DNA of 41,559 nucleotides from Anaerolineales bacterium (GCA_035291705.1 DATDRM010000139.1:1-41559); one strand, 5' to 3'. Positions 7,930-33,660 are shown, counted from the first letter of the stretch. A program made the numbers and translations. The notes: generated by a model from the sequence alone, not told the origin.

Positions 7930-9624
7930 CTAACGAGGTGGGAGCGCCAGCATCTCCTCTGGCACCCAACCAACGACGTCGACGTTTCCGACTTCCAAAA
8001 GGACTTTCCACCAATACGACCCCGTGGCTTTCACGCCGTTTAAGCCATGCGCCGGAACGATTCCAATTGTGAACGCCGGGACGGTGTCCACGACGGCGTA
8101 GTTGGTGCCTGGGCCAAACCGGACTTGAGCCTCGGTTCGCGTTAAGACACCGCTGCTCGTAGAAAATGTATGAGATTGCTCTTTCGGTTCTACGACGACC
8201 ATCAGCATACCGTTGGCCACCAGGCGCTGTAGCATGGTTCCAGATGCATCCCGGCCATATACATAATAATCCGAGGTCAGCGGCAGCCCGTCGCCGGAAA
8301 GCTGCGGGGGTGGGGGGGTACTGACCAAAGGCGGGATCGGCACACCCGGTGCGACCGCCTCGTCCTGCTGGCTTTGCCCGCCTTCCCCTGGATTGGCGAT
8401 GATGGGGAGAAACATCTTGCCTTCGCAGATGGTGATATTGCAGTAGGAATTATTCTTCACTTCGCCGTTCACCACCAAAGTCGAAGAGCCGCCACCGTCT
8501 TGGGCGATACCCCAGGTTGCGCCCAGGACATCTTTGGCGAAGGAAGCCAGCTGGGGGATGGTCATCCCCAGGCTGTACCATGCATCCCGGCCATCGACCA
8601 CGATAAAGTAGATGTAATCATTATTGAAAGCGATCGCCGTGCGCGGGTCGCGCACATTGGCCTGAGGATCGCCGGAAAAATCCTGGATCACGCCGTTTTT
8701 TAGGAAATAGAAGGCGCCCCCGACGCTGGCATAGGTGGAGGACCAATCATAAGCCAGCCCCGAATCACAGTTTTTAATCCTTTGGGCAATGCCAATTTCA
8801 TCCCCTTCAACGATGCCCTTGCTGAGAAATTCCGCCTTGGCGGCCCCGTGCATGGACAAGACGACATGGTCAAAAGGGATGGGCGTCGAGCCCTGGTTAT
8901 CGCGGACCTTCATGATCTTGCCGCGCGTCATATCCGAGGTAAGTGCAATCAGGGAGGGGCGCGACAACTCGACTAGCACTTCGATGGCCCCATCACCGCC
9001 GGTTTGGGTATCGGCGTCATATTGGGGAGTGTAGAGGATGAACTGGTTATCCTGGCGGGGCACATTGATGCCGTGGAACATCTGGGTGGCGATCACACTT
9101 CCGGCGCGAATATAGTTGACAACCTGTTTATCCGCCGGATGCGAGACGCATTCGCCGATGAAGGCCTCCCGATCCAGCTTCCAGGCGAAGCCACTCCCGC
9201 TCTCACCATCCCAAAACTGTTTGGCATACCAGCCGGAATGCACCTGCCCGCTCCACGGCACCCCCGGCGGCTCTTCAGGAGCGCCAAAATAAAAGCCGTT
9301 GATCGCCACGACCACCTGGTTGCGATTCCCCCAGGTCTGGTTCCAATAATTGATCGCCCCATCGTAGCGTCTCGCCATACCGCTGACCGTCTCCGGCCCA
9401 CCCGATAGCCGGCCCTGGGCGATGCTGCTTTCGAGGATCACATTCTGGTTGCTGCGCTGCATGCGCGTAACGAACACGTTGTTCGGATCAGGCAAGTGAA
9501 ATTCTTGATAATCGATGCCATCTGCCACAGGTTCCCATTCATCCGGCGCGCTCTGCGCACGTCCGGCAGGGGAAAACAAAGCCAGGAACAAGAATGCGGC
9601 TATCAACAAACAACTACGTCTCAT
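7930..9624 (-). CDS. Secreted phosphodiester glycosidase (NAGPA/DUF2233-like) with a C-terminal SH3b-like domain
   Basis: The signal peptide is MRRSCLLIAAFLFLALFSPAGRAQS (ATG 9624; the ORF is also open to 9657). Motifs are YFIVVDGRD...GMTIPQLASF....LGA.WGIAQDGGGSSTLVVNGEV. A Pro-rich linker and a bacterial SH3-like tail follow (YWWKVLLEVGNVDVVGWVPEEML). Confidence 0.65.
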   Translation of the reverse strand: MRRSCLLIAAFLFLALFSPAGRAQSAPDEWEPVADGIDYQEFHLPDPNNVFVTRMQRSNQNVILESSIAQGRLSGGPETVSGMARRYDGAINYWNQTWGNRNQVVVAINGFYFGAPEEPPGVPWSGQVHSGWYAKQFWDGESGSGFAWKLDREAFIGECVSHPADKQVVNYIRAGSVIATQMFHGINVPRQDNQFILYTPQYDADTQTGGDGAIEVLVELSRPSLIALTSDMTRGKIMKVRDNQGSTPIPFDHVVLSMHGAAKAEFLSKGIVEGDEIGIAQRIKNCDSGLAYDWSSTYASVGGAFYFLKNGVIQDFSGDPQANVRDPRTAIAFNNDYIYFIVVDGRDAWYSLGMTIPQLASFAKDVLGATWGIAQDGGGSSTLVVNGEVKNNSYCNITICEGKMFLPIIANPGEGGQSQQDEAVAPGVPIPPLVSTPPPPQLSGDGLPLTSDYYVYGRDASGTMLQRLVANGMLMVVVEPKEQSHTFSTSSGVLTRTEAQVRFGPGTNYAVVDTVPAFTIGIVPAHGLNGVKATGSYWWKVLLEVGNVDVVGWVPEEMLALPPR

Positions 9625-9805
9625 GGGGTTTTCTGAGTTTCCTTTGACGACGATCATAACCAGCCTCCTGCCCTTGCCTGTACGAATTCGTCCCCGAATG
9701 GTACCGATATAGAACCATTGTGCTCGAAAATTGGAACGTTGTCAAGAAACCTGGATTTACTGGTCTTCCTGAGGCGTTTGCTCAAGATGATTCATCCCCT
9801 CTATA

Positions 9806-16069: not shown

Positions 16070-18079
16070 ATGGAGTCAGCGCGTTTCGAAAAAATCCGCC
16101 TTTCGGCATTAAAATTGATCTCGCACGAATACTTTCCGCTCGGCTTGCTGATCACGCTTTTCCTGATCGTCGGGAGTTTGATCGTGACCGATTATGGCGA
16201 GTCGTGGGACGAACAACTGCGTTACCGCTACGCAACCAATTCGCTCAGCGCTTACCTGGGGGATAGCAAGGGGTTGAGAGGTGAGAAAGGCTCCTTCTAT
16301 GTAATGGCGGCCAAGCTCGGCTCTGAGGCGATCATGCGGGTTCGTAAAGACTGGCTGCCCATCGAATCCTGGCATTTCATGCACTTCCTCTCCCTTCTGT
16401 TGGGGCTATCTTTCTTCTACATCATCTGCCTGCGATTGATGAATAAATGGACGGCTTTCAGCACCACATTGCTTTTTGGCACTCAACCTTTGATCTGGGG
16501 GCATGCATTCATCAACCCTAAAGACATCCCCTTCATGGCGTTCTTCTTGGGCAGTCTCGCCACGGGCCTGGCGATGGTCGATGCCTTAACCGGTCATTCC
16601 CTTGATGAAGGGAACAGGGGATCGGGAGCTAAACCAGGAGCTCTCTCTCTACACTCGATATTGTCGCGCGATTGGCAGGCGCTCAACAGAAAAAGGCGGG
16701 GCTTGTTCGCCTCATGGGTTGGGATTTCCGTGGTGATCCTGCTGGGATTAATCATCGTCCACGCGCCTGTCACGCAGGCAATGACCGGCCTGATCGAGCG
16801 AGCTTATTTTGCAGAACCTTCCAGCGCTCTGGGAAAATTATTCTCCAATTTGGCAGAGAATATGCACGCCGTGCCGCTGGAAAACTATGTCCAGAAAAGC
16901 TTGAAGCTTTATCCGCGCCTGGTGCTGCTTTACGCCCTCCTGACAATGGTGGTAGACCTGGCGATCGCTCTCCGCTTGTTCCCAACAGCCGCCCAGGCGA
17001 TGTGGCGGGAGCATGTAATTCCATTCGTAAAATTGGTGCTGAAGAGCCTCATAAACAAGGGTGTGTTGGGCGCCGGGATCCTTTTGGGGTTGTGCACGTC
17101 AACCCGCGTGATCGGCCCGGCCGCGGGTGCCCTGGTCGCTTATTACTTCCTGATAAAAACCGGCAGAAAGGCGATCCCGACCTTGATCGCTTATTTTACG
17201 ATCGCAGTGGTCGTTTCCTACCTCACCTGGCCCAACCTGTGGGGAGCTCCAGTGGAAAACTATATCGGCAGTATTACACAGGCCTCCGATTTCCCCTGGG
17301 ATGGCAAGGTGATGTTCGCCGGCGTCGATTACCCGGTCAGCGAGCTGCCGCGCGCTTACCTGCCAGTGTTGCTGTCGCTACAATTCACCGAAACCGCCGT
17401 GATTTTATTCCTGGCCGGCCTGGCCGTCGCCATCGCTCGCTTCATCAGGAGGGCCGTCGACCGGGAATTGGTAGCTCTGCTGGCCTTGTGGTTGATTCTC
17501 CCCATCATAGCAGGACTGGTCCTGCAGCCCACCATGTACGACAATTTCCGGCACTTCCTGTTCGTCATCCCCTCAATCTTCCTCTTCGCCGGGCTTGGAA
17601 TCCAGGCTATATTAGACAGGATAAAAAGCACCCCGGCGAGGATCGTGATCCTGGTCCTGCTGCTCCTGCCCAACCTTTATTGGGACGTCCAGCTGCACCC
17701 TTACCAATACGTGTATTACAACAGCCTGACCGGTGGGGTCAGGGGCGCCTTCCGCAACTATGAGATGGATTATTGGGCAACCTCTTACCGGGAAGCAATC
17801 AATTACTTAAACGAGAACGCGCCTGCCAACGCGCAGGTCGTCGTCTGGGGGCCTGAGCATGTCGTCAAAAGCCTGGCCCGCGCTGATCTGCTCATCGAAA
17901 AATTTGATAAAGAGAACTTCCAAGCTAAAAGCGGCTCCAGCTTTGCCATCGTCTCGTCCAGACATGATAAAGATCTGACGCTCTTTCCGGAGGCGAAACA
18001 GTTATATACTGTCGGTAGAGCTGGGGCGATCTTCGCCGTCGTCAAGCAACTTGACCTGGCCCACCCCCAAAATCCATAG
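16070..18079 (+). CDS. GT-C fold glycosyltransferase-like membrane protein
   Basis: This is a 669-aa polytopic protein. Its first loop carries VTDYGESWDEQLRYRYA. It starts 19 nt after the preceding GT gene and has a C-terminal soluble domain. Confidence 0.6.
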   Translation: MESARFEKIRLSALKLISHEYFPLGLLITLFLIVGSLIVTDYGESWDEQLRYRYATNSLSAYLGDSKGLRGEKGSFYVMAAKLGSEAIMRVRKDWLPIESWHFMHFLSLLLGLSFFYIICLRLMNKWTAFSTTLLFGTQPLIWGHAFINPKDIPFMAFFLGSLATGLAMVDALTGHSLDEGNRGSGAKPGALSLHSILSRDWQALNRKRRGLFASWVGISVVILLGLIIVHAPVTQAMTGLIERAYFAEPSSALGKLFSNLAENMHAVPLENYVQKSLKLYPRLVLLYALLTMVVDLAIALRLFPTAAQAMWREHVIPFVKLVLKSLINKGVLGAGILLGLCTSTRVIGPAAGALVAYYFLIKTGRKAIPTLIAYFTIAVVVSYLTWPNLWGAPVENYIGSITQASDFPWDGKVMFAGVDYPVSELPRAYLPVLLSLQFTETAVILFLAGLAVAIARFIRRAVDRELVALLALWLILPIIAGLVLQPTMYDNFRHFLFVIPSIFLFAGLGIQAILDRIKSTPARIVILVLLLLPNLYWDVQLHPYQYVYYNSLTGGVRGAFRNYEMDYWATSYREAINYLNENAPANAQVVVWGPEHVVKSLARADLLIEKFDKENFQAKSGSSFAIVSSRHDKDLTLFPEAKQLYTVGRAGAIFAVVKQLDLAHPQNP

Positions 18080-19999
18080 CAGAATAACTCCGGGTAGCAT
18101 CATCCTGTCCAGTCCCGAATTAACCCACCAGCTGATATCATGCACGCTGTCATATGAGGCCAGGTAGTACATCCCCAGGATTGCCAGGATGTACAATAAG
18201 CCGCAGATCAGGATCGGGGATATCGTCCCCCGCCATCTGCCAGGCCTGACTAGGGCGAGCGCCCAGGCCAGGAGCATCCCAATGCCCAACACACCCCAAA
18301 CCTGGGCGCTGAACAAATCAGTGAACAGGGAACGCAGGATATACACGGCTTCTACCGGATGAAAATCCCCCGCCAGATTGCGCTGGATGGCTTCCATTGC
18401 CAGCCCAGACTTTGCCGCCTGGTCTGAGTAGGCCATGGCCTTGACCAACCACCAGAAAACCCAATAGCCGCACAAAGGTGCAACTAGCAGCGCCGCCTGG
18501 CGCCAAGGCTTGCCCTGAGCCTTGTCCTGAGCAGAGCGAAGGAGCTGGCTAAGGGGCAGCACTCCCGGTCGTTTGAAGTAAGCCAGCCCAAGCAGTAAGA
18601 GCGCCCCCAGCCAGGCCAGCACGAGTCCTTCAGGCCTGGTCCAGGCAGCCGCGGCAAAGAACACCCCGCTCAGAAAGATTCGCCCCTCTGCCTGCCGGGA
18701 GGCAAGGGCTGCTATCACCCCGGGGAATAATATCACCGCCGTGACCAGGTAATAAGCCATCGGCAGGTTAGCAAAGCCAATCGTGGCGTGCCGAAAGAGG
18801 ATCGGCGTGCTGGCCAGCAGCAGGGTGGCTAACCCGGCAATGGGGCGGTTTACCTTGATTTGGACCAGGAACCCATAGACAAGGAACAACAAAGCCAGGT
18901 AATAACCGCTGAAGATGACTTTTGAGGCGGGGAGCGTTTCTTGAAACAAGCTGCGAAAAGCAGCAATGAGCACAGGAACCAGCAGCGGATAGGGCAATGT
19001 GTTGGTGCCCCAGGAGGTAACCGTGGATATATCTCCGGTCAGGGCAATCCCGTAACCCTTCACACCCCAGATTTGGATCTCATCGGCCGTATGGTAACCC
19101 TGGCCAACCGAAAGCAGTACAGCTGCTCCCCCCAGGATCAGGAAGGCGATCTGCCACAGATCGATGCGCCGCCCTGGCGGGACAGGCAAACCTGGCGATG
19201 CATTAGCCGCGCGGCGCAAACCCCTGGATACGCGAGCTGCCCACAGAGAAGCAACGCAGAAAAGGATCGTGATCCCTAAAACAAGCCTGCTATTAATCGT
19301 CATGCCGGCTAACCCCGCCAACCCTATCCCCATCGAAAGCGCAAACAACGCCAGGCCATAGCCCAGGGCAAGCCGGGTGGGGATATCCACATCCGGAACG
19401 AGGCGTCCTGAAAACAAAAAACCACCCACCACCAGCATGGTCAGCCAGGCCGCGGGCCAGGCAGCCGCCTGGAAGACCTCGAACAAGCTCTGGAAGCCTG
19501 GCTGAAAAGATACATATCCAGGGGAAGGCGGGTGATCCGGAAGCAGGAGGCCCCATTCGCTGTCAAACATACGTACATTCCTGGATGGCGTGGAATACCC
19601 ATCTCCTGGGAAGTCGCCGACGACCAGGAAATAGGTGTTCTCGCGGGAGATGGTTTGCAGACAGGCGGCGTCTGTACAGTTGAGCACCTGGCGTGGGGCA
19701 AGGAAGAACTGCATGTAAGGGGTGATGCTCAAGACCTTTAACCCGCCTCCCTCCGGGGGCAGGACGACGCGCGCGTTTGTGGGAATGTTGTCGTTTAAGA
19801 ACTGGACATAGTTGGCGAAGCGCTGGTTCTGGCCAAAGTTGGCGCTGCGCCATAATCCCGTCTGCCCGATGGCCCCCCGCACGCGCAGCATATTTTGCCC
19901 GACGTTCCCTAATAAACGCCACCCCTGGAAAAAGAGGCCGGCGAGCAACACAACGGATAACAGCCAGGTCTTTGCTTTGAACGAAAACATCGCTTTCAT
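18002..19999 (-). CDS. Large polytopic membrane protein, possibly GT-C-like, with an N-terminal extracytoplasmic domain
   Basis: This 665-aa protein has one TM, then about 170 aa of soluble sequence, then more than 12 TM helices. The loop HTADEIQIWGVKGY may be the acidic GT-C motif. Its 3' end overlaps the convergent gene by 78 nt. Confidence 0.45.
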   Translation of the reverse strand: MKAMFSFKAKTWLLSVVLLAGLFFQGWRLLGNVGQNMLRVRGAIGQTGLWRSANFGQNQRFANYVQFLNDNIPTNARVVLPPEGGGLKVLSITPYMQFFLAPRQVLNCTDAACLQTISRENTYFLVVGDFPGDGYSTPSRNVRMFDSEWGLLLPDHPPSPGYVSFQPGFQSLFEVFQAAAWPAAWLTMLVVGGFLFSGRLVPDVDIPTRLALGYGLALFALSMGIGLAGLAGMTINSRLVLGITILFCVASLWAARVSRGLRRAANASPGLPVPPGRRIDLWQIAFLILGGAAVLLSVGQGYHTADEIQIWGVKGYGIALTGDISTVTSWGTNTLPYPLLVPVLIAAFRSLFQETLPASKVIFSGYYLALLFLVYGFLVQIKVNRPIAGLATLLLASTPILFRHATIGFANLPMAYYLVTAVILFPGVIAALASRQAEGRIFLSGVFFAAAAWTRPEGLVLAWLGALLLLGLAYFKRPGVLPLSQLLRSAQDKAQGKPWRQAALLVAPLCGYWVFWWLVKAMAYSDQAAKSGLAMEAIQRNLAGDFHPVEAVYILRSLFTDLFSAQVWGVLGIGMLLAWALALVRPGRWRGTISPILICGLLYILAILGMYYLASYDSVHDISWWVNSGLDRMMLPGVILLWILGVGQVKLLDDGEDRPSSTDSI

Positions 20000-23387: not shown

Positions 23388-24452
23388 ATGTCCCCTATGT
23401 TCGTACCCGGTCCGGTGGATGTCGATCCGGATGTGCTGGCAGCTCAAACCAAGGCAATGCTCCCCCACCGCAGCAAGGAATTTGAGGCGATCTACCGCCA
23501 GACATGGGAAAAAGCGAGGCAATTGTTCGACACCCAATTTAGAGTATTTGTAGTTACCAGCTCAGGGACAGGGTTACAAGAAGCTGTTGTGCGGAATCTC
23601 GCCAAAAAGGACGTATTGAGCTGTGTGAATGGGGCTTTCAGTAAGCGCTGGTTTGAGGTCGCTCTGGCAAATGGAAAACAAGCAGATATCCTCGAGACAG
23701 ACTGGGATCGACCGATCACACCAGAAATGGTTGCCGAAGCGCTCCACAAGAAAAGGTATGAGGTCGTGACGATCGTCCATAACGAAACCTCAACCGGTTT
23801 ACAGAACCCGGTCGAAGAAATCGCTGCGGCTGTCCGCTCAGCCAGTCCAGAGACCTTGATCTGCGTCGACGCTGTATCTTCATTGGGTGGTGTGAAGATA
23901 AAGATGGATGCCTGGGGGTTAGATGTATTGTTCACTTCATCGCAAAAATGCCTGGCGTTGCCACCCGGATTGGCGCTTGCGGCGATTTCTGATAGAGCGC
24001 TGGTCAATGCAGAGCGGGTGCCCGAACGGGGTTGGTACTTTGATTTTCTTCGATTAGAAAAGCATCTCCACAAAGATTCCACCCCAGCTACACCCGCCCT
24101 GTCTTTAATCTATGCCTTGGATTACCAATTGGATCGTATCCTTGAAGAAGGTTTAGAAAACCGTTATACCCGGCACAGGGCAATGGCTAAGCGCGTCCAG
24201 AGTTGGGCGATCGGACGAAGCTTGGAGATATTCGCACCAGCGGGCTTTCGCTCACAAACGGTAACGACGATAAAGAATACCCGCAATATCGATGTCCAGG
24301 TCTTAAACACCCATCTGTTGGAACGGGGCATGCGGATTGCTAATGGATATGGTCCCCTAAAAGGCATTACTTTCCGAATAGCTCATATGGGAGATCTGCA
24401 ATTATCCGATATCGAAGCGCTATTGGTGGCCATCGATGAGGTTCTTAGGTAG
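23388..24452 (+). CDS. Class V PLP-dependent aminotransferase (alanine-glyoxylate / serine-pyruvate aminotransferase family)
   Basis: ATG 23388 follows CAGGAGG. Motifs are MFVPGPVDVDPDVL....MLPHRSKEF, VHNETSTG, and the PLP lysine context FTSSQKCLALPPGLAL. Confidence 0.8.
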   Translation: MSPMFVPGPVDVDPDVLAAQTKAMLPHRSKEFEAIYRQTWEKARQLFDTQFRVFVVTSSGTGLQEAVVRNLAKKDVLSCVNGAFSKRWFEVALANGKQADILETDWDRPITPEMVAEALHKKRYEVVTIVHNETSTGLQNPVEEIAAAVRSASPETLICVDAVSSLGGVKIKMDAWGLDVLFTSSQKCLALPPGLALAAISDRALVNAERVPERGWYFDFLRLEKHLHKDSTPATPALSLIYALDYQLDRILEEGLENRYTRHRAMAKRVQSWAIGRSLEIFAPAGFRSQTVTTIKNTRNIDVQVLNTHLLERGMRIANGYGPLKGITFRIAHMGDLQLSDIEALLVAIDEVLR

Positions 24453-24488: not shown

Positions 24489-24517
24489 TTGACACAGAAC
24501 AGATGTTCGGTTAATAT
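24489..24517 (+). promoter_or_regulatory. Near-consensus sigma-70-type promoter (TTGACA-17-TAATAT)
   Basis: TTGACA is at 24489..24494, the spacer is 17 nt, and TAATAT is at 24512..24517. It lies about 95 nt upstream of the ATG at 24612. Confidence 0.65.
24497..24508 (+). promoter_or_regulatory. LexA-type SOS box 1 (GAAC-N4-GTTC) within the promoter spacer
   Basis: The site reads aGAACAGATGTTCg. It matches the Gram-positive (Cheo) box CGAAC-N4-GTTCG at 13 of 14 positions. Confidence 0.65.
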
Positions 24518-24520
24518 ATC

Positions 24521-24532
24521 GAACATCTGTTC
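24521..24532 (+). promoter_or_regulatory. LexA-type SOS box 2 (GAAC-N4-GTTC) just downstream of the -10
   Basis: The site reads CGAACATCTGTTCt. It is the exact inverted copy of box 1. The full arms ACACAGAACAGATGTTCG (24492..24509) and CGAACATCTGTTCTGTGT (24520..24537) are 18 of 18 complementary. Confidence 0.65.
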
Positions 24533-24611
24533 TGTGTATTGTGGAAAAGATTAGAGCACTAATATGTTGCCGATCCGACATCGGTGCGATTTAGTTCTAA
24601 GGGAGGCTCAT

Positions 24612-24881
24612 ATGAACGTGGGAATGCTTTGGTTCGATAACGATGTAAAATCAGATCTTTTTTCCAGGATCGAACGTGCCGCGATTTATTACAAAGAAAA
24701 ATATGGAAAAGCACCCAATATCTGCTTTGTCCACCCCAGCATGGCCAATCGGATTAAAGCAGTTGGTGAGGACAATCCATCGATCAAAGCGGGTGAGATC
24801 GAGGTGCGCACAACCCGGTCGGTCCTACCAAATCACATTTGGATTGGAGTGAATGGGATGAACGGCCACGCTAATGCGTGA
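24612..24881 (+). CDS. Hypothetical 89-aa protein, candidate SOS-regulated gene (no family recognised)
   Basis: ATG 24612 follows GGGAGG (24601..24606). The product is MNVGMLWFDNDVKSDLFSRIERAAIYYKEKYGKAPNICFVHPSMANRIKAVGEDNPSIKAGEIEVRTTRSVLPNHIWIGVNGMNGHANA. It has no TM segment and no motif I can name. Its 3' end overlaps the convergent holA stop by 11 nt. Confidence 0.55.
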   Translation: MNVGMLWFDNDVKSDLFSRIERAAIYYKEKYGKAPNICFVHPSMANRIKAVGEDNPSIKAGEIEVRTTRSVLPNHIWIGVNGMNGHANA

Positions 24882-25869
24882 GCTCTGCAGCCAACACATC
24901 CAGTTCGACTTCTAACTCTGCCTTGCCCGATTTCACCGCTTCGTCAACTATCAAAAGCCGGTGGTAGATTAATTCCAAGCTTTCCTTGCTGAATCTGCGC
25001 GCCTGCGGTGATATTTTCTGCGCCACAAATGGGGGGATTTTTATCAATCGCACCATATCTCCTTCATTGCCCCGCTTATCCAAAATTTCTCTCGCCAACA
25101 ACAACAAGCGAAATTGGCGAACGATCATCCCAAAAATCGATCCGGCGTCCTGGTGCCTCAACAGGTTATGCAAAGACTCGCTTGCCTGGCGACCATTTCG
25201 ATTTCCTAAGGCATCTACCAGTTCAAAAATATTTCCCTCTCCAAAGAACGTGGTTAAATTCCTGACATCATCGGCCTCAATCGGCCTTTGAAAATTCACA
25301 TATAACAACATTTTTTGGATTTCCTGATCTGCCAGGCGGACATCCTCGCCCACAATACTGGTTAATAATGCAGCTGCCTGGCTTGTTATCTCGCCTCCCG
25401 CTTCTTTCACCCGCATTTTTATCCAATTGACCATCTCGGGTCCATAAGGGACTTTAAACTCTTTGAGGTAAACCCCTTCCCCTCTTACTCTCGCCCACTT
25501 TTCTAACCAGTGTATCTCCCCTTTTTTTCTCATTTGCTCAGTCGTAAGGGCACCATCCAGGATTAAAACCAGCGCAGTGCTCACGGGAATCCTTTCAAGA
25601 AAATCTTTAAACTTTTGACGGAGCGGATCACTGTTCAGTTGCGCCAATGGATTTTTCAGTATGACCAACCGGCGCGGGGCAAGGAAAGGCATTGCGTTGG
25701 TTGTTGAGGTCATTTCTTCGATATTTAGTGAACGCCCATCCAGACTGGTGGTATTCATCTCAGCTAAAGCGGGATCGCCCAGTTTGGCCTTTAACCCGGC
25801 GACAAACTGGGCGATCGCAAACTCATCTTCGCCATGCAACACATAAACGATTGGCGGCCTGGAGGCCAT
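24871..25869 (-). CDS. holA: DNA polymerase III delta subunit
   Basis: The N-terminus is PIVYVLHGEDEFAIAQFV. The length is about 332 aa, and the C-terminus has the delta-like helical domains. ATG 25869 follows GAGGGAG. A GTG at 25875 would overlap the upstream stop. Confidence 0.75.
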   Translation of the reverse strand: MASRPPIVYVLHGEDEFAIAQFVAGLKAKLGDPALAEMNTTSLDGRSLNIEEMTSTTNAMPFLAPRRLVILKNPLAQLNSDPLRQKFKDFLERIPVSTALVLILDGALTTEQMRKKGEIHWLEKWARVRGEGVYLKEFKVPYGPEMVNWIKMRVKEAGGEITSQAAALLTSIVGEDVRLADQEIQKMLLYVNFQRPIEADDVRNLTTFFGEGNIFELVDALGNRNGRQASESLHNLLRHQDAGSIFGMIVRQFRLLLLAREILDKRGNEGDMVRLIKIPPFVAQKISPQARRFSKESLELIYHRLLIVDEAVKSGKAELEVELDVLAAELTH

Positions 25870-25871
25870 AC

Positions 25872-26411
25872 TCACTCCCTCGTTACAATCCGGTACGCCT
25901 GGAGGCGCCCACGTCGGCTGGCCACAATCTCGACCACGTGCAAGTTTCCCGGCTCCCCTGAAGTCGTCACACGTTCTTGTAGCAAAGACCCGAGGGGCTG
26001 CGCCACGATTAGGGCGACGGTCGCCAAAGTCATCGCCAGGGGCAGGCGCTCTACCTTATCACGGAAGCTTCGTCCTCCGAACATGGCCAACCCGGCTGCC
26101 AATCCGGCCAGAATCCCGGCGGTGACAAAATTAGTGCCGCAGTTAGGGTGGACAGCAAGTTGGCGCTCTCCCTTGCGCAAACGAGCCAGCGCGGCCTCGA
26201 TTGCCTCCTGGAGCTCATCGATAGGCACATCCCCCAGGATCCAGAATCCACCCACGTCGGAATGGCCTGCTAGGCTGCGTTTTGGGTGGTGCTGGGACAG
26301 GAGATGAAGCGTGGCATGCTCCAAGCCGTGGTTACGCCGGATTCTGGCGATCGCCGGTAAATTCAATAAAGATTCATAAGGGGAGGTCATTGCTGGCATG
26401 GAAAGCCTCAC
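25872..26411 (-). CDS. Conserved hypothetical protein with HxxxH and HPNCGTN motifs and a hydrophobic segment
   Basis: This is a 179-aa ORF. Motifs are RRNHGLEHATLHLL and LAVHPNCGTNFVTAGILAGLAAGLAMFG. I think it resembles a DUF family seen in Chloroflexi and cyanobacteria but cannot name it reliably. Its stop abuts the holA start. Confidence 0.5.
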   Translation of the reverse strand: MRLSMPAMTSPYESLLNLPAIARIRRNHGLEHATLHLLSQHHPKRSLAGHSDVGGFWILGDVPIDELQEAIEAALARLRKGERQLAVHPNCGTNFVTAGILAGLAAGLAMFGGRSFRDKVERLPLAMTLATVALIVAQPLGSLLQERVTTSGEPGNLHVVEIVASRRGRLQAYRIVTRE

Positions 26412-27209: not shown

Positions 27210-27353
27210 TCAAGTTCCTGGGGTGAGGCCGAACAAGGACGCAAGAATAAGGATCATGGCCGCAACCAGGGCTAACACAAGGAAAATCAGCACCACCGGC
27301 ACCAGGTACTCAGACCATTTCGAGGGGGTGAAGCGTTTGCTGGGACGGCTCAC
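27210..27353 (-). CDS. Small (47-aa) single-TM protein; not in the ORF track
   Basis: GTG at 27353..27351 overlaps the TGA of the upstream MerR-like gene (GTGA). The product is VSRPSKRFTPSKWSEYLVPVVLIFLVLALVAAMILILASLFGLTPGT. This is my hand translation. Confidence 0.35.
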   Translation of the reverse strand: MSRPSKRFTPSKWSEYLVPVVLIFLVLALVAAMILILASLFGLTPGT

Positions 27354-27988
27354 CGGTTGCCTCGCTGGTAGGCATCATACGTCTCTAAGAGGGTGATCTG
27401 GATCTGATCCGTAAAGGCGTTGATCTTCCGAAACATCTCACTCCAGGCGCTCGAGGAGTGGAGCGCTGCCGATTCGTATAAGCTGAGCATCGAGTCAACC
27501 AGCACATTGCGAAAAAAAAGAAAGGCGCGTGACGCCTCAGCTGCGCTTAACCCATACCGCCAGCCTCTGGAAGCGTACTCATAACCCAGAGAACGCGCTT
27601 CAGATTCAGCCGCGTCATCATCGGTAGTCAGATAACCTATCAGGCCTTGGAGCATGGCCCGGCCACTGAGCCGGTATTGAGCGCGAGCCTCCTCATCCAG
27701 CTTTTGATACCATTCTTGCGAAGCGAGTCGCCCTTCACTGATCTGCAACCGGATGCTCTTCAGGGCCTTCTGCACAACCAGGTAGCTCCCACTTGCCCCA
27801 TCCCTCTGGCGGGACTGGATCCAAAGCTCGATCTCGTTGCGCTTATAACGGCGATGTCCCCCCTGGGTGCGATGCGTGGGCAGGTGGCCTTGATCTGACC
27901 AGCTGCGTACCGTACTGGGGTGCACTCCCAGCATCTGGGCTGCTTCGCTCAAATTCAACCACTCGCTGGACATATTACGAAGGCTCAC
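27350..27988 (-). CDS. MerR/excisionase-type HTH protein with an uncharacterised helical C-terminal domain
   Basis: The HTH is WLNLSEAAQMLGVHPSTVRSWSDQGHLPTHRTQGGHRRYKRNEIELW. The C-terminal 140 aa are helical with no recognised motif. The start is GTG 27988 (14-nt overlap with the MFS gene) or ATG 27973. Confidence 0.7.
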   Translation of the reverse strand: MSLRNMSSEWLNLSEAAQMLGVHPSTVRSWSDQGHLPTHRTQGGHRRYKRNEIELWIQSRQRDGASGSYLVVQKALKSIRLQISEGRLASQEWYQKLDEEARAQYRLSGRAMLQGLIGYLTTDDDAAESEARSLGYEYASRGWRYGLSAAEASRAFLFFRNVLVDSMLSLYESAALHSSSAWSEMFRKINAFTDQIQITLLETYDAYQRGNR

Positions 27989-29282
27989 TGGCCAAAGCGG
28001 CGCGTTCGATCAATGCCGATGGCTGCGTACTCTCGCGAAAGGCAGCCACGTCAATCCGGCGCAGCAACAGCAAAGAGACAAACAACAGGGCGGCTTCGAC
28101 TCCAAAAACTACTGCATACGCCAGGACTGGGTTTGTGAGGACTTGCATCAAGATATCGCGCACAGCCCCACCCAACACGGAACCCACCAGTCGGGAAACC
28201 GCGTTGGCCATCCCCCAGGCGCCGATAAAAAGCCCAACCTTGCCGGCTGTGGTCATATCTAACATCAAGGACAGGTTGGCGACCGTGGAAAGACCGGTGC
28301 CGAATCCAAGCAAGACGACGCCGGAGTAAAACACGCTCCGATTAACGACGACTCCACTCAGTGCGATCAATACAAATCCCAGTAACGCCCCCCAGCCTCC
28401 CCAGGTTGCCACAAGGCGTTTGCTAAAACGCCTTTCCAAAGCTCCAGCGACCAGCAGGGCCAGCAGCGTAAAACCGCCCCATATCGAAGTGATGCGCGTC
28501 GTCGCCTGGACCGGCAACGAAAAAGCTTCTCCGCCAAAAGGTTCTAAAAGGATATCTTGCCCTAAGAGGGCTGTCAATAAAATGATCAGGTAAACGAAGA
28601 ACAGGGACGCCTGCCGGTTTTCCAGAATAACAGCCAGGGACTCCCCCCACGAATAGCGTTCTTCACCTTTCGTCTCAGCCAAAGCCGTTCGCTTTTCGAG
28701 TTTTAGCAAACCGATGCTGCCCAGGACCAGCGCAGCCAAACCCACGATCCAGAAAGACCGCACCAGCGCCTGTGGGGTATAGGGATTGACCAGCTGGCTC
28801 AACAGGATAGCTGTGCAAATGATGCTAACAATCATCATAAACCACATGGTGGCGATCGTCTTCCCCCGGCCGCTTTCTCCCGACAGTTCTGAGGCCAGGG
28901 AAAGATAGGAGACCGTTGCAAAGTTAAAACCCATCCCCCAGGCGCCGAAAGCGAACACGCCAAAGGCTAAACCAACCCAGCGGTCATCTGCAATGACAAA
29001 GGCAGCCAGTGGGGAAAGCACTACACCCAGCACGCATAGGGCTAATCCAAACAGAATATAAGGCGTTCGTCGCCAACCCCACAAGGGATGCCGGTCGGCA
29101 AACGAACCAATGATCACCTGGATCGGCGAGAACAGATAGGGCAGAGAGGCCAGGAGCGCTACCAGGGTTGCAGAGAGGGCCAGTTCTTTGATCATCACGC
29201 GGTTAAGCGTGCTGTTGATCGGCACCAGGGTCATCGCCACGGCGACGTGGATCAGGCCCAATTGAATACGCTTGATTAACAT
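27975..29282 (-). CDS. MFS transporter of the BCD / PucC (LhaA) family
   Basis: The N-terminus is IQLGLIHVAVAMTLVPINSTLNRVMIKELALSATLVALLASLPYLFSPIQVIIGSFADRHPLWGWRRTPYILFG. It follows the characteristic PucC pattern (GTLNRVMI.EL......V..L..L.....P....G..SD.......RR.PYI). It has 12 TM helices. Confidence 0.75.
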   Translation of the reverse strand: MLIKRIQLGLIHVAVAMTLVPINSTLNRVMIKELALSATLVALLASLPYLFSPIQVIIGSFADRHPLWGWRRTPYILFGLALCVLGVVLSPLAAFVIADDRWVGLAFGVFAFGAWGMGFNFATVSYLSLASELSGESGRGKTIATMWFMMIVSIICTAILLSQLVNPYTPQALVRSFWIVGLAALVLGSIGLLKLEKRTALAETKGEERYSWGESLAVILENRQASLFFVYLIILLTALLGQDILLEPFGGEAFSLPVQATTRITSIWGGFTLLALLVAGALERRFSKRLVATWGGWGALLGFVLIALSGVVVNRSVFYSGVVLLGFGTGLSTVANLSLMLDMTTAGKVGLFIGAWGMANAVSRLVGSVLGGAVRDILMQVLTNPVLAYAVVFGVEAALLFVSLLLLRRIDVAAFRESTQPSALIERAALASEPS

Positions 29283-29401: not shown

Positions 29402-30829
29402 TTATTCAGACAGCAATGCGTGTTCGAGCGCCTGGCGCAGGGAGCGCGCTTCGACAATTTGGATGTCCTCCGGCCAGGGCTCGCCGCGCCGCAAACGACG
29501 CGGTACTACCGCTGTCTTAAAGCCCAATTTCGCCGCCTCGCGCAGCCGGGCCGGCATCTGTCCTACCATGCGCAGTTCGCCAGACAGGCCGAGTTCGCCG
29601 ATCAAGACGGTATCGGCGCGCACGGAGGCGTCGCGGTTAGAGGAAGCGATGGCGGCCGCGATCGCCAGATCGGCCGCCGGCTCGCTCACCTTAAGCCCGC
29701 CGACCACGTTGACAAACACATCTTGCTCGCCCAACCGCAGCCCAACCCGGCGGGTGAGTACCGCCACGGTCAGCAGCAGGCGGTTGAAGTCGACCCCATT
29801 GGGGGTGCGGCGAGCGATCCCGAACGAAGTTTGGCTGGTCAAACCCTGGATTTCTACCAGGAGCGGGCGGGTGCCCTCCATTGTTACCGCGATAGCCGAT
29901 CCGGGCGCGTTGACCATGCGCTCGGCCAGGAAGGCCTCGGACGGGTTAGAGACTTCGGCCATGCCGCGCTCGCTCATTTCGAACACCCCCACCTCGGAGG
30001 TAGCCCCGAAGCGGTTCTTGACCGAACGCAGTAAGCGATAGGATTGAAACCGGTCGCCCTCCAGGTAAAGCACCGTGTCCACGATGTGTTCGAGCACGCG
30101 CGGCCCGGCGATGGCGCCCTCTTTTGTGACGTGGCCGATTAGAAAAACAGAAACCCCTGAGGATTTGGCCAGTTCGCGCAGGCGAGAGGCACTTTCACGC
30201 ACCTGGGAGACCGAACCAGCTGATGACGACAGCTCGGGCAGGGTCGTGGTCTGGATTGAATCCACGATCAACAGGCGTGGCTGGATGGCAGAAATGTGCT
30301 CGAGGATCACATCCAGGTTAGTCTCGGTGACCAGGAAGAGATCGTCCGGCAGGGCTGCTCCTGCCAGGGCAGCTCCTGCCCCGGCAATCCCTGCTCCGCT
30401 ATCGCCGCGCAGCAGGCGCAAAGCGCGCATCTTGATCTGCCTTTCGGATTCTTCGCCGGAGACGTAGAGCACGCGCTCGTCACGCGCCATTTCCAGGGCG
30501 GTCTGTAACAACAAGGTGCTCTTGCCGATCCCCGGGTCGCCACCGATCAAGACAATTGAACCGGGCACCACACCTCCCCCCAGGACGCGGGCGAACTCTC
30601 CAATGGGCAGCGGCAGGCGCTCTTCGACGTCCTCACCGATCTCGGAGAGGCGGAGGGGCGCAGAGCCCCCTAACAGGCCGCGCCCGGCGCCCTTTGCCCT
30701 GGCTGCAGCCGGAGCGACTACCTCTTCCACCATGCTGTTCCAGGCGCCACATTGCGGGCAACGCCCCATATCGCGCGCCGACCTGCGCCCGCACTGCTGG
30801 CAGACGTATTGCGTGTGAGTCTTTGGCAT
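29402..30829 (-). CDS. radA: DNA repair protein RadA/Sms
   Basis: The zinc finger is YVCQQCG...CPQCGAWNS. Walker A is GGDPGIGKSTLLLQ. KNRFG and the Lon-like C-domain are present. A Gly/Ala-rich insert (GDSGAGIAGAGAALAGAALPDD) follows the QIK.RA.RL helix. Confidence 0.9.
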   Translation of the reverse strand: MPKTHTQYVCQQCGRRSARDMGRCPQCGAWNSMVEEVVAPAAARAKGAGRGLLGGSAPLRLSEIGEDVEERLPLPIGEFARVLGGGVVPGSIVLIGGDPGIGKSTLLLQTALEMARDERVLYVSGEESERQIKMRALRLLRGDSGAGIAGAGAALAGAALPDDLFLVTETNLDVILEHISAIQPRLLIVDSIQTTTLPELSSSAGSVSQVRESASRLRELAKSSGVSVFLIGHVTKEGAIAGPRVLEHIVDTVLYLEGDRFQSYRLLRSVKNRFGATSEVGVFEMSERGMAEVSNPSEAFLAERMVNAPGSAIAVTMEGTRPLLVEIQGLTSQTSFGIARRTPNGVDFNRLLLTVAVLTRRVGLRLGEQDVFVNVVGGLKVSEPAADLAIAAAIASSNRDASVRADTVLIGELGLSGELRMVGQMPARLREAAKLGFKTAVVPRRLRRGEPWPEDIQIVEARSLRQALEHALLSE

Positions 30830-30936: not shown

Positions 30937-33414
30937 CTAGTTCGCCGCTAACGCCTCCGGCTCGAGCGCCTTCTCTTCGCTGCGGTGCAGCTTGATCTCC
31001 CCATCTACCACATCTACAACCACAGTATCACCGTCCTCAAACTCCCCCGAGAGCAGGGCGTCTGAGAGGGCGTCTTCGACCTTCTGCTGGATAACACGCT
31101 TCAGGGGGCGAGCGCCCATTTCAGGGTCGTAGCCTAGATCCGCCAGTGTGTCCAGTGCAAGCGGGGTGGCATTGAGCACAATCGCATGCTCCTCCAGCCG
31201 TTCGCTGACCTTACGCAGCTCCAGTTGCACGATCTGCTTGATATTGTCCTTGTTCAAGGAACGGAACACGATCACCGCGTCGACCCGGTTGATAAATTCC
31301 GGGCGGAAGACGCGCTTGAGGGCGTCGAGCAACTTTTTACGCATCTCCTGATATGACAGGCGCTCTTCAACCTCTTCATCGCGTTTGAGGTCAAAGCCGA
31401 GCGAGGTCTGGCGTTTGATCATCTCGGCGCCGATATTGGAGGTCATCACGATCAGTGCATTGCGAAAATCGACCTTGCGCCCGCGGGCATCGGAGAGGTG
31501 GCCCTCTTCCATGATCTGGAGCAGCATGTTGTGCGCCTCTGGGTGGGCCTTTTCGATCTCGTCGAAGACCACGATGGAGTACGGCCGGCGGCGTAAGGCT
31601 TCGGTGAGCTGCCCTGCCTCCTCATAGCCAACATAACCGGGCGGTGCGCCCACCAGCCGGCTGACATTGTGCCGTTCCATGAATTCTGACATGTCCAGCT
31701 GGATAAGGGCTTCTTCGCTGCCGAACAGGAACTTGGCCAGGGCCTTGGTGAGTTCAGTCTTGCCAACTCCAGTCGGGCCAAGGAAAATAAAGGATCCAAT
31801 CGGCCGGCGCGGGTCCTTTAAACCCGCGCGTGCTCGCCGTACCGCCTTCGAGATGGCCTCGATCGCCTCTTCCTGGCCGATGATGTGCTCTTTCATCTCC
31901 TCCTCCATCTGGAGCAGGCGCTGTGACTCTTCCTGAGCGATCTGCATCACCGGCACTCCGGTCCACATGGAGACAACTTCAGCGATATCCTCGGCGGTCA
32001 CCACGGGGCTGGAGCTGCGGTCCCAGCCCGTACGCAGTCGCTCCAGCTGCCGTTCCAACCCTTCCTGGCGCTCCAGGATCTCCTGAGCGTCTTCATAACG
32101 CCCGTCTTCCAGGGCCAGGTTGTGGTTTTGGCGGATCTCGCGCAACTGGTCCACCAGGTCTTTGGCTGTTTTGGCCGCCGGACTTTTGTACATGCGTACG
32201 CGGGAAGAGGATTCATCGATCAAATCGATCGCCTTATCTGGCAGGAAGCGTTCGGTGACGTAGCGGGCCGAGAGGCGCACCGCTGCATCAAGGGCGTCAT
32301 CCGAAATTGTCAGGCGATGGTGCTCTTCATAGGCTGAGCGAATGCCGCGCAGGATCTCGATTGTCTCGTCGATATTGGGTTCATCGACCATAACTGGCTG
32401 GAAGCGGCGCTCCAGGGCGGCATCGCTCTCAATATGCTTGCGATATTCGTCCAGGGTGGTGGCGCCAATCACCTGCAGTTCACCACGCGAGAGAGCCGGC
32501 TTCAGGATATTGGCGGCGTCTACCGACGATCCCGCTGCGCCAGCGCCTACCAGCATGTGCACCTCATCAATGAAAAGGATGGCGCCGGCGGATTTAAGCT
32601 CGTCGATCACTCGCTTGAGCCGTTCCTCAAACTGCCCGCGATACATTGTACCGGCGACCAGGGAACCGACATCCAATTGCAAGACGCTTTTATCGAGTAG
32701 GGGAGCAGGGACATCACCTTCAATGATGCGCTGGGCCAGGCCTTCGACGATGGCTGTTTTGCCAACGCCCGGCTCCCCGATTAAGGCTGGATTATTCTTC
32801 GTACGGCGTGCCAGGATCTGAATGACCCGCTCGATCTCCATTTTCCGGCCGATAACCGGGTCAAGTTTGCCTTCCTCGGCGAGCGCAGTCAAGTCAACGG
32901 CTAGCTGGTCGACCATCGGAGTCTTGGGGCGCTGTTTTTCAGTATTGGCAGGTTTCCGCTCAACCCCACTGCGGCGAGAGGAACTGCTTTCCTGAAGGAC
33001 ACGCCGCGTCTGGCGGCGGATCTGATCGGGGGTCACACCCATTTTACGCAGCACATCCGTTGCAACGCCTTGGTTATAGCGCACCAACCCGAGCAGGATG
33101 TGCTCGGTGCCAATGTAGTGATGGCCCATCCGCCGCGCTTCATCCACTGCAAATTCGAGTACCTGCTGGGTGCCCGGCGAGAGATCTAGCTTGCCCCCTC
33201 GAAAACCACCGGTTCCAGCCAGGCGCTCGATGATCTCCTGAACACGGTCAGATTCTAATCCTAGCTCTCGCAACACCCGTCCGGCAACCCCGCCTTCCTC
33301 CCGAATTAAACCCAGGAGAAGGTGCTCTGTTCCAATGTAATTTTGGCGCATGCGCTCGGCTTCTTGATGAGCCAGGCTGAGCACCCTTCTCGCCCGTTGC
33401 GTAAAACGCTCCAT
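30937..33414 (-). CDS. clpC: ATP-dependent Clp protease ATP-binding subunit ClpC (class III stress AAA+ chaperone)
   Basis: It starts [36 protein letters not shown] (Clp_N repeats). It has two AAA+ modules (GEPGVGKTA and GPTGVGKTE) and a UVR-like middle region. The ORF is open to 33444, but homologs start at MERFT. Confidence 0.9.
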
Positions 33415-33660
33415 GCTAGACAAAGCATACCTCCTAAGCTTCACGTTCCCATTAGCAGTTAACCTGCCCCGATCAGGCTGTCAATACTTTCAGCCGGTCG
33501 CCTACATAATAAAATTGCCCGCATCTGCCACGGGCCATGAGAGCAAATGAATATGAGACTGTTAATCTAATTGGATTCTACCAGAGTTTGACTAACCTGC
33601 GTGGATTTCTGCCTCGGAAGTAATGCAAGTTAATAAAACTCTAAGGTACATCTTTGGTTA

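Follow-up and report, generated by a model that had tools for sequence, protein, structure and literature searches.

In a 41,559-nucleotide (nt) contig of an Anaerolineales bacterium (DATDRM010000139.1, assembly GCA_035291705.1; hereafter the window, meaning the whole stretch analysed), a short transcription unit at positions 24489-24881 very probably belongs to the SOS response, with LexA as its repressor acting on two operators placed in the promoter. Comparison with relatives gives good support to a classical mode of LexA repression through a Gram-positive-type box, which would make the gene for an 89-amino-acid (aa) protein a new member of the LexA regulon, its product belonging to an uncharacterised family. 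A preliminary description made from this contig had proposed a candidate new SOS gene under a LexA-box promoter, and the proposal is now supported by the conservation of the box, by the same motif in front of lexA, and by the linkage of the gene to lexA clusters. The elements of the unit are the following.

24489-24494, plus strand: -35 hexamer TTGACA (promoter scan); the hexamer stands directly 5' of the box in most relatives too.
24497-24508, unstranded: putative LexA box 1, GAACAGATGTTC, inside the -35/-10 spacer; position weight matrix (PWM) score 22.8.
24512-24517, plus strand: -10 hexamer TAATAT (promoter scan).
24521-24532, unstranded: putative LexA box 2, GAACATCTGTTC, over the expected transcription start; PWM score 22.2.
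24492-24537, unstranded: inverted repeat, presenting the two boxes as mirror images and centred on the -10.
24538-24598, plus strand: 5' leader with a 7-bp hairpin; the distance between predicted start and ATG is about 85 to 90 nt.
24599-24606, plus strand: ribosome-binding site (RBS) AAGGGAGG, 5 nt upstream of the ATG, read from the sequence.
24612-24881, plus strand: coding sequence of the 89-aa protein, stop included, with an ATG start; member of a large unannotated small-protein family.

The region reads CCTTGACACAGAACAGATGTTCGGTTAATATATCGAACATCTGTTCTGTGT. Its promoter, TTGACA and TAATAT separated by 17 nt, agrees with the consensus at 10 of 12 positions and is the sole promoter-like match between 24000 and 25400 in the promoter scan, while the repeat finder returned two arms of 18 nt each, 24492-24509 (ACACAGAACAGATGTTCG) and 24520-24537 (CGAACATCTGTTCTGTGT), 100% complementary and 10 nt apart. 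Each arm holds one GAAC-N4-GTTC. The operator thereby overlaps the core promoter, box 1 lying between the -35 and the -10 and box 2 beginning 4 nt past the -10, so that it covers the expected +1; LexA bound at these two places would block RNA polymerase. The promoter, the perfect repeat with its 10-bp spacer and the placement of one motif in the spacer and the other near +1 had all been described beforehand, and the scans recovered each of them. The two motifs are the only exact GAAC-N4-GTTC in the window, against 0.49 expected by chance; 10 of 100 shuffled windows contained at least two of them anywhere, and two boxes within one window are by themselves only modestly improbable, the strength of the case coming from conservation in relatives. 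With a PWM built from the relatives' sites, both boxes score somewhat under the median of the training sites (26.7), and the next-best site of the window reaches 7.7. This site, TATAGAACCATTGTGCTCGA at 9708-9727, is intergenic, upstream of a 575-aa NAGPA-domain gene (7930-9657, minus strand); we rejected it as an operator because its score is too weak, and it is probably non-functional. The hairpin of the leader (24568-24586, 7 bp, TGCCGATCCGACATCGGTG, then CGATTTAGTT) was called terminator-like by the scan, and neither an Rfam scan nor a tRNA scan of the window, leader included, returned a match.

The operator was then followed through 80 genome loci (459 kb) of different species, almost all labelled Anaerolineae or Chloroflexota. 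These loci hold 85 exact GAAC-N4-GTTC, where base composition predicts 6.8, and the exact box is present in 68 of the 80; of the 12 others, 8 carry in the corresponding position a box with one mismatch, and 3 end at a contig edge. The boxes sit almost only in the promoter of the small gene or in that of an FtsK-like gene upstream of it: 25 loci have a box at most 250 nt upstream of the small gene, and in about 50 of the 80 a gene for an FtsK-like protein of ~272 aa stands directly upstream, with the box or boxes in its promoter, ~900 nt from the small gene. An additional box at position 5447 of L050/L066 is intragenic and was taken as chance. Two stereotyped layouts recur, TTGACAnAGAACnnnnGTTCTgnTATAAT on the one hand and TATAAT with AGAACnnnnGTTCT immediately after it on the other; the position of box 1 is kept in relatives, where it reads TTGACAnAGAACnnnnGTTCTnnTATAAT, and the consensus derived for the clade is TAGAAC-ATAT-GTTCTA. 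In Anaerolinea thermophila (L074), for example, the FtsK-like and small genes form an operon behind TATAATTAGAACACATGTTCT. Counting informative loci only, about 75 of 77 have such a predicted box, either in the orthologue's own promoter or in that of the two-gene operon which it forms with the FtsK-like ATPase.

Metagenome contigs were scanned for the exact pattern TTGACANAGAACNNNNGTTCTNNTATANT, which gave more than 120 matches, and 80 of these loci were analysed for the first gene downstream.

lexA: 17 of 80 loci, with 28 to 42% identity to Bacillus subtilis LexA over most of the length.
Small-protein family of the 89-aa gene: 7 of 80 loci.
Alkyltransferase-like gene (PF01035): 5 of 80 loci (L172, L176, L184, L206, L220).
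Cys-rich protein: 4 of 80 loci.
FtsK-like ATPase: 2 of 80 loci.
GyrI-like protein: 2 of 80 loci (L194, L203).
DUF6504 protein: 2 of 80 loci (L169, L199).
TetR-like protein: 2 of 80 loci (L186, L187).
dinB: 1 of 80 loci (L234).
Unannotated 178-aa protein behind the same promoter-plus-box pattern: L173 and L216.

The other metagenome loci have an unclassified first open reading frame (ORF) or none. LexA identities were taken from BLAST against the B. subtilis and Escherichia coli proteins; a search with a profile built from these LexA sequences gave matches of which the 120 listed all carry PF01726 and PF00717, and both LexA copies of L221 score above the TIGR00498 cutoff. Together, the genes behind the pattern outline a candidate SOS regulon for these bacteria. 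Since a LexA regulon is expected to comprise an autoregulated lexA, dinB and a GyrI-like gene of the sbmC type, we read the motif as the SOS operator; the LexA of Dehalococcoides reportedly binds GAAC-N4-GTTC as well. A pilot scan of viral contigs with a shorter pattern gave 88 matches, about the number expected by chance on a rough estimate, and was not used.

Another repressor could recognise GAAC-N4-GTTC, in which case the gene would stand outside the damage response. Many local repressors do use long perfect palindromes, the lexA of this genome was unseen within the window and the loci, and the LexA sites of the clade are predicted from sequence. Nevertheless, we hold such a repressor to be very improbable, because the same pattern precedes lexA in 17 of 80 loci as well as dinB, GyrI-like and alkyltransferase-like genes, which is the signature of an autoregulated LexA regulon, because the small gene lies inside the lexA operon in L221, L246 and L294, and because the motif is the established Gram-positive LexA motif (PMC3323433).

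The linkage to lexA is seen in more distant relatives, in the following layouts, obtained from tblastn and ORF maps.

L294, 3001-5962: lexA, FtsK-like (347 aa), 91 aa, 133 aa, small protein.
L246, 7021-10058: lexA, FtsK-like, 91 aa, 133 aa, small protein, in the same order as L294.
L221, 3360-7147: lexA, boxes, second lexA, Cys-rich protein, FtsK-like, membrane protein, small protein, the last convergent with holA, followed by DUF6391.
L303, 6229-9656, and L289, 2127-4853: lexA, lexA, Cys-rich protein, FtsK-like.

The small protein of L294 is 42% identical to that of the window; the 133-aa protein beside it has a hydrophobic N-terminal stretch and is likely a membrane protein, and the FtsK-like protein matches PF01580 and PF17854 with an intact Walker A, GTTGSGKT. 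The downstream synteny of L221 (holA, then DUF6391) is that of the window, L005 and L008. As to the other members of the cluster, the Cys-rich protein has ~130-150 aa and gave no Pfam match, and the FtsK ATPase, ~350 aa, consists of the alpha and motor parts and lacks the membrane and gamma domains. The 272-aa partner found in Anaerolineales (L008, 2160-2978; L005, 2155-2976) aligns to the motor of L294 with E = 7e-11, PF01580 being matched by some members only; its Walker A has changed from GTTGSGKT to GENVYEKT and its Walker B is retained. This protein is probably a divergent motor of the FtsK/SpoIIIE family and, given the degenerate Walker A beside a conserved Walker B, may be a pseudo-ATPase.

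The window promoter is nearly identical to the one in front of the L014 and L021 operons, down to the N4 pair AGAT/ATCT, which suggests that the FtsK-like gene was probably deleted in the lineage of the window and the promoter joined to the small gene. The simplest history would be a stepwise reduction, from the full lexA cluster, convergent with holA, to a degenerate ATPase and small gene with their own double operator, as in many Anaerolineales, and then to the small gene alone; the small gene, always kept, would be the surviving last gene of an ancestral lexA cluster.

The mirror symmetry of the two boxes was examined in 60 distinct two-box promoters, lexA promoters included, in which the two boxes are 19-34 nt apart. 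In 29 of them the N4 centres of box 1 and box 2 are exact reverse complements of each other, with 12 different N4 pairs (e.g., AGAT/ATCT, GCAT/ATGC, ACCT/AGGT), so that a perfect palindrome of 12-17 nt around the -10 is kept by co-variation. Promoters with mirrored centres include those of the window, L003, L014, L016, L019, L021, L051, L057, L069, L178, L209, L221, L225 and L289, among others. A symmetric pair of LexA dimers (a tetramer) around the -10, a DNA structure, or homogenisation by template switching are all possible origins. Several metagenomes contain near-identical contigs of the window organism, with 99.5-99.8% identity over 5 kb. Two of these, L298 and L299 (99.6-99.7% over the same length), differ from the window at three single bases of the promoter and leader, 24525, 24548 and 24560. 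The A>G change at 24525 falls in the N4 centre of box 2 and breaks the palindrome, leaving GAAC and GTTC intact and with no compensating change, which indicates that the mirror symmetry is not obligatory.

These data also bear on whether the inverted repeat could be mainly a nucleic-acid structure, i.e., a terminator of the upstream aminotransferase gene or a cruciform, the boxes being secondary. The stem is perfect and stable (-20.1 kcal/mol when folded as single-stranded DNA, z = -8.1 against shuffles), it lies 40 nt past the aminotransferase stop codon at 24452, and the N4 co-variation in 29 of 60 promoters keeps the arms complementary, which two independent protein sites would not require. 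However, no T-run follows the stem and the terminator scan gave no call there; in the majority of orthologous promoters there is one box only and a long palindrome is absent, the boxes persist among loci while the upstream genes change, and L298 and L299 break the stem without compensation. The co-variation could also result from two LexA dimers bound symmetrically or from template-switch homogenisation of near-palindromes. We therefore consider a mainly structural role very unlikely, and LexA operators remain the preferred explanation of the repeat.

Several points weigh against the assignment of the unit to the SOS response, or against a precise function for its product. The support for the SOS assignment, strong as it is, comes from comparison. 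A tblastn search of the window and the 80 genome loci found neither lexA nor recA, and the operator of this genome's own LexA is deduced from its relatives together with metagenome contigs that carry no label; synteny (holA, DUF6391 and the small-protein family) is what assigns the contigs bearing lexA to a taxon. The association of the small gene with the FtsK-like ATPase is one of gene neighbourhood only, and it is lost in 25 of the 80 loci and in the window. On the side of function, the 89-aa protein had been said to match no known family, and Pfam (E <= 0.1), NCBIfam, PHROGs and PADLOC all came back empty. The sensitive profile and structure searches suggested at the time led to no named family or significant fold either: PDB sequences searched with the profile of the family yielded noise only (E >= 0.2), and Foldseek with the AlphaFold2 model had best E values of 0.14 in PDB and 0.008 in BFVD (viral), nothing significant. 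The best Foldseek matches were fragments of HK97-type capsids with a query TM-score of at most 0.65, which we took as a generic helix-plus-sheet resemblance and not as homology.

The gene itself is clearly a real coding gene to judge from its relatives, and belongs to a large unannotated family. An alternative in-frame ATG at 24564 would give 105 aa, yet the homologues all start MN(V/I)GMLWFDND, and public gene callers also chose the start at 24612. A word-indexed search returned 507 homologues; among the 120 matches listed, identities range from 53 to 99% and lengths are mostly 82-105 aa, all are named 'hypothetical', and those with a label come from Anaerolineales/Anaerolineae or Chloroflexota. 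Searching 1.84 billion cluster representatives with a profile gave 1,884 clusters (50% identity) at E <= 1e-3 and 799 at E <= 1e-10, nearly all of them proteins of 70-130 aa that stand alone; these matches showed no domain fusion that would be informative. Across the wide family M1, G4, M5, L6, W7, D9, A23, Y27, K30, P35, C38, P42, P73, W77 and G79 are near-invariant. The good RBS, the 89-aa ORF and its overlap with holA, all present as first described, are thus joined by the conservation and coding signature in relatives on which the preliminary description had made the gene depend. The overlapping neighbour is the following.

24871-25875, minus strand: holA, DNA polymerase III delta subunit (PF06144 and PF21694), context outside the SOS unit.

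The two genes are convergent and overlap, as had been reported; the overlap of the 3' ends is 11 nt. The same arrangement, small gene convergent with holA and then DUF6391, is found in L005, L008, L221 and L272; the convergence is conserved and the overlap is not universal, and the antisense effect on holA suggested beforehand would be conjectural. Any transcript of the small gene must enter holA in antisense, with only a weak terminator-like hairpin at 24995-25008 after its 3' end, and one might imagine that the ORF is a chance frame and that what the promoter makes is a non-coding RNA or an antisense RNA to holA. The likelihood of this is negligible: hundreds of homologues with amino-acid conservation and a conserved start and RBS effectively refute it, and the small gene and holA do not overlap at all in L221.

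The AlphaFold2 model of the 89-aa protein is a compact alpha/beta domain (mean predicted local distance difference test score 78) with a beta-alpha-beta-beta-beta-beta order of elements, namely strand 3-8, helix 16-31, strand 37-40, helix 42-45, and strands 58-60, 63-67 and 75-80, the loop 46-57 being of low confidence. No hydrophobic or membrane segment was found in the sequence, and both this and the model are in line with the soluble product predicted at the outset. The conservation pattern is that of a hydrophobic core with a few surface residues, and holds no strictly conserved catalytic residues; near-invariant positions that are mostly hydrophobic or structural argue against an enzyme. 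A metal-binding enzyme built on Cys38, His41, His75, Asp9 and Asp11 was considered and rejected, since His41 and His75, invariant in close relatives, are not kept in the wider family.

Small SOS genes may encode division inhibitors or toxin-like checkpoints, such as SulA, YneA, SidA and ChiZ, a role that the preliminary description had suggested here, and a small SOS-controlled gene in or next to the lexA locus, as for yneA and chiZ, whose ancestral neighbours (an FtsK-like ATPase and a small membrane protein) point to the division septum, would suit such a role. We nevertheless regard it as unlikely for the 89-aa protein, which has no SulA (PF03846), LysM or other Pfam domain at E <= 0.1 and no hydrophobic segment, and which is predicted to fold as a compact soluble alpha/beta domain; no antitoxin-like partner occurs in the window, and this family is well conserved over a very broad range, while known inhibitors of the kind are confined to particular lineages. 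Nor was a toxin-antitoxin module recognised, with a single gene between the promoter and holA, no toxin domain in Pfam and no PADLOC match.

What the protein does can be proposed only tentatively. It is possible, though doubtful, that it is a damage-induced soluble binding or adaptor factor which ancestrally worked with an FtsK-type translocase in chromosome handling or segregation at division; the neighbourhood with an FtsK-type translocase and a small membrane protein points to chromosome handling at division after damage, and solubility without a fixed catalytic set favours a binding or adaptor role. The protein can evidently act without an adjacent ATPase gene. More speculatively, and with a still lower likelihood, a damage module of Chloroflexota, hitherto unrecognised, could have the 89-aa protein and the short FtsK-like ATPase at its core and be encoded in the lexA operon, together with the second LexA, the Cys-rich protein and the small membrane protein. 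When induced by the SOS response, it would act at the septum of these filamentous bacteria on their chromosomes, e.g., clearing damaged DNA, segregating it, or holding back division. The small protein, kept where the ATPase is degenerate or lost, would then be the indispensable effector; alternatively, by its pairing with holA, it might act on the clamp loader or replisome. As a lead to function, the conserved convergence with holA, which points to the replisome, is the weaker of the two.

We propose a model in which a strong sigma-70-type promoter is kept silent by LexA dimers on both GAAC-N4-GTTC operators, which would block RNA polymerase. DNA damage would bring about RecA-stimulated self-cleavage of LexA and free the promoter, and the leader of ~85-90 nt with its strong RBS would then permit rapid synthesis of the 89-aa protein. 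For this organism, we infer both the binding of LexA and the induction by damage from the comparison with its relatives.

The closest known counterpart of the operator is the Gram-positive-type LexA operator (the Cheo box of B. subtilis LexA/DinR, Mycobacterium and Dehalococcoides), with which it shares the core, a palindrome with a 4-nt centre, the overlap with the promoter and the autoregulation of lexA through the same box. It differs from the Cheo box by its A/T flanks (TAGAAC...GTTCTA here, CGAAC...GTTCG there), and by a stereotyped placement, between TTGACA and TATAAT or directly after TATAAT, with a frequent mirrored second box. The B. subtilis yneA-yneB-ynzC operon and Mycobacterium tuberculosis chiZ likewise place a small gene under GAAC-N4-GTTC, with physical linkage to lexA in many genomes. 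Both YneA and ChiZ have a LysM domain and a membrane anchor and are transcribed divergently from lexA, whereas the present protein is soluble, has no LysM and is encoded downstream of lexA in the same orientation; Pfam and Foldseek found no similarity of sequence or fold between them.

An FtsK-type motor under LexA control is already known from the dinH promoter of E. coli ftsK (reviewed in PMC4080785), and in the Chloroflexota clusters a protein with FtsK alpha and motor parts similarly follows lexA. The Chloroflexota protein is unlike E. coli FtsK in its size of ~350 aa, in lacking the membrane and gamma domains and in having small unannotated proteins encoded beside it; its Walker A is degenerate in Anaerolineales, and in the window the gene is absent. 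In smeA-sffA of a filamentous bacterium (cited in PMC9380542), too, a small membrane protein and a short FtsK-like ATPase are encoded together. The resemblance to the FtsK-like ATPase and likely membrane protein of 133 aa in L294 is one of gene layout, and the 89-aa protein has no counterpart there. We know of no LexA control of smeA-sffA. DinI, a small SOS-induced modulator of RecA, is comparable in size (~80-90 aa), solubility, alpha/beta composition and LexA control; the 89-aa protein has no match to the DinI family in Pfam (E <= 0.1) or NCBIfam, its order of secondary-structure elements differs from the DinI topology, and no link to RecA was seen.

To our knowledge, SOS regulons have been mapped in few phyla, and in the literature that we searched neither the small-protein family nor, apart from the operator of Dehalococcoides, an SOS regulon of Anaerolineae or Chloroflexota is described. 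The present analysis would add to the DNA-damage response a very widespread unannotated family, absent from Pfam and tied to lexA and to an FtsK-like ATPase, and would offer a testable entry to damage handling in filamentous Chloroflexota, organisms that abound in sludge, sediments and soils. The operator model, TAGAAC-N4-GTTCTA within a promoter, could be used to predict the regulon in the phylum, and the co-varying mirrored operators pose a small puzzle in repressor-DNA architecture or in the evolution of palindromes.

Some other genes of the window may be mentioned. radA/sms (29402-30829) and clpC (30937-33444), both on the minus strand and 5-9 kb downstream of the unit, have no GAAC-N4-GTTC, and radA without a box is apparently outside the regulon here. 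Two large convergent ORFs, 16070-18079 (plus strand, 669 aa) and 18002-19999 (minus strand, 665 aa), overlap by 78 nt at their 3' ends; neither has a Pfam match, and the same calls are made on public contigs. Finally, a MerR-family regulator adjoins a PucC-type transporter of the major facilitator superfamily (27350-29282); the PucC family, best known from bacteriochlorophyll-related gene clusters, is unexpected in an Anaerolineae-like genome.

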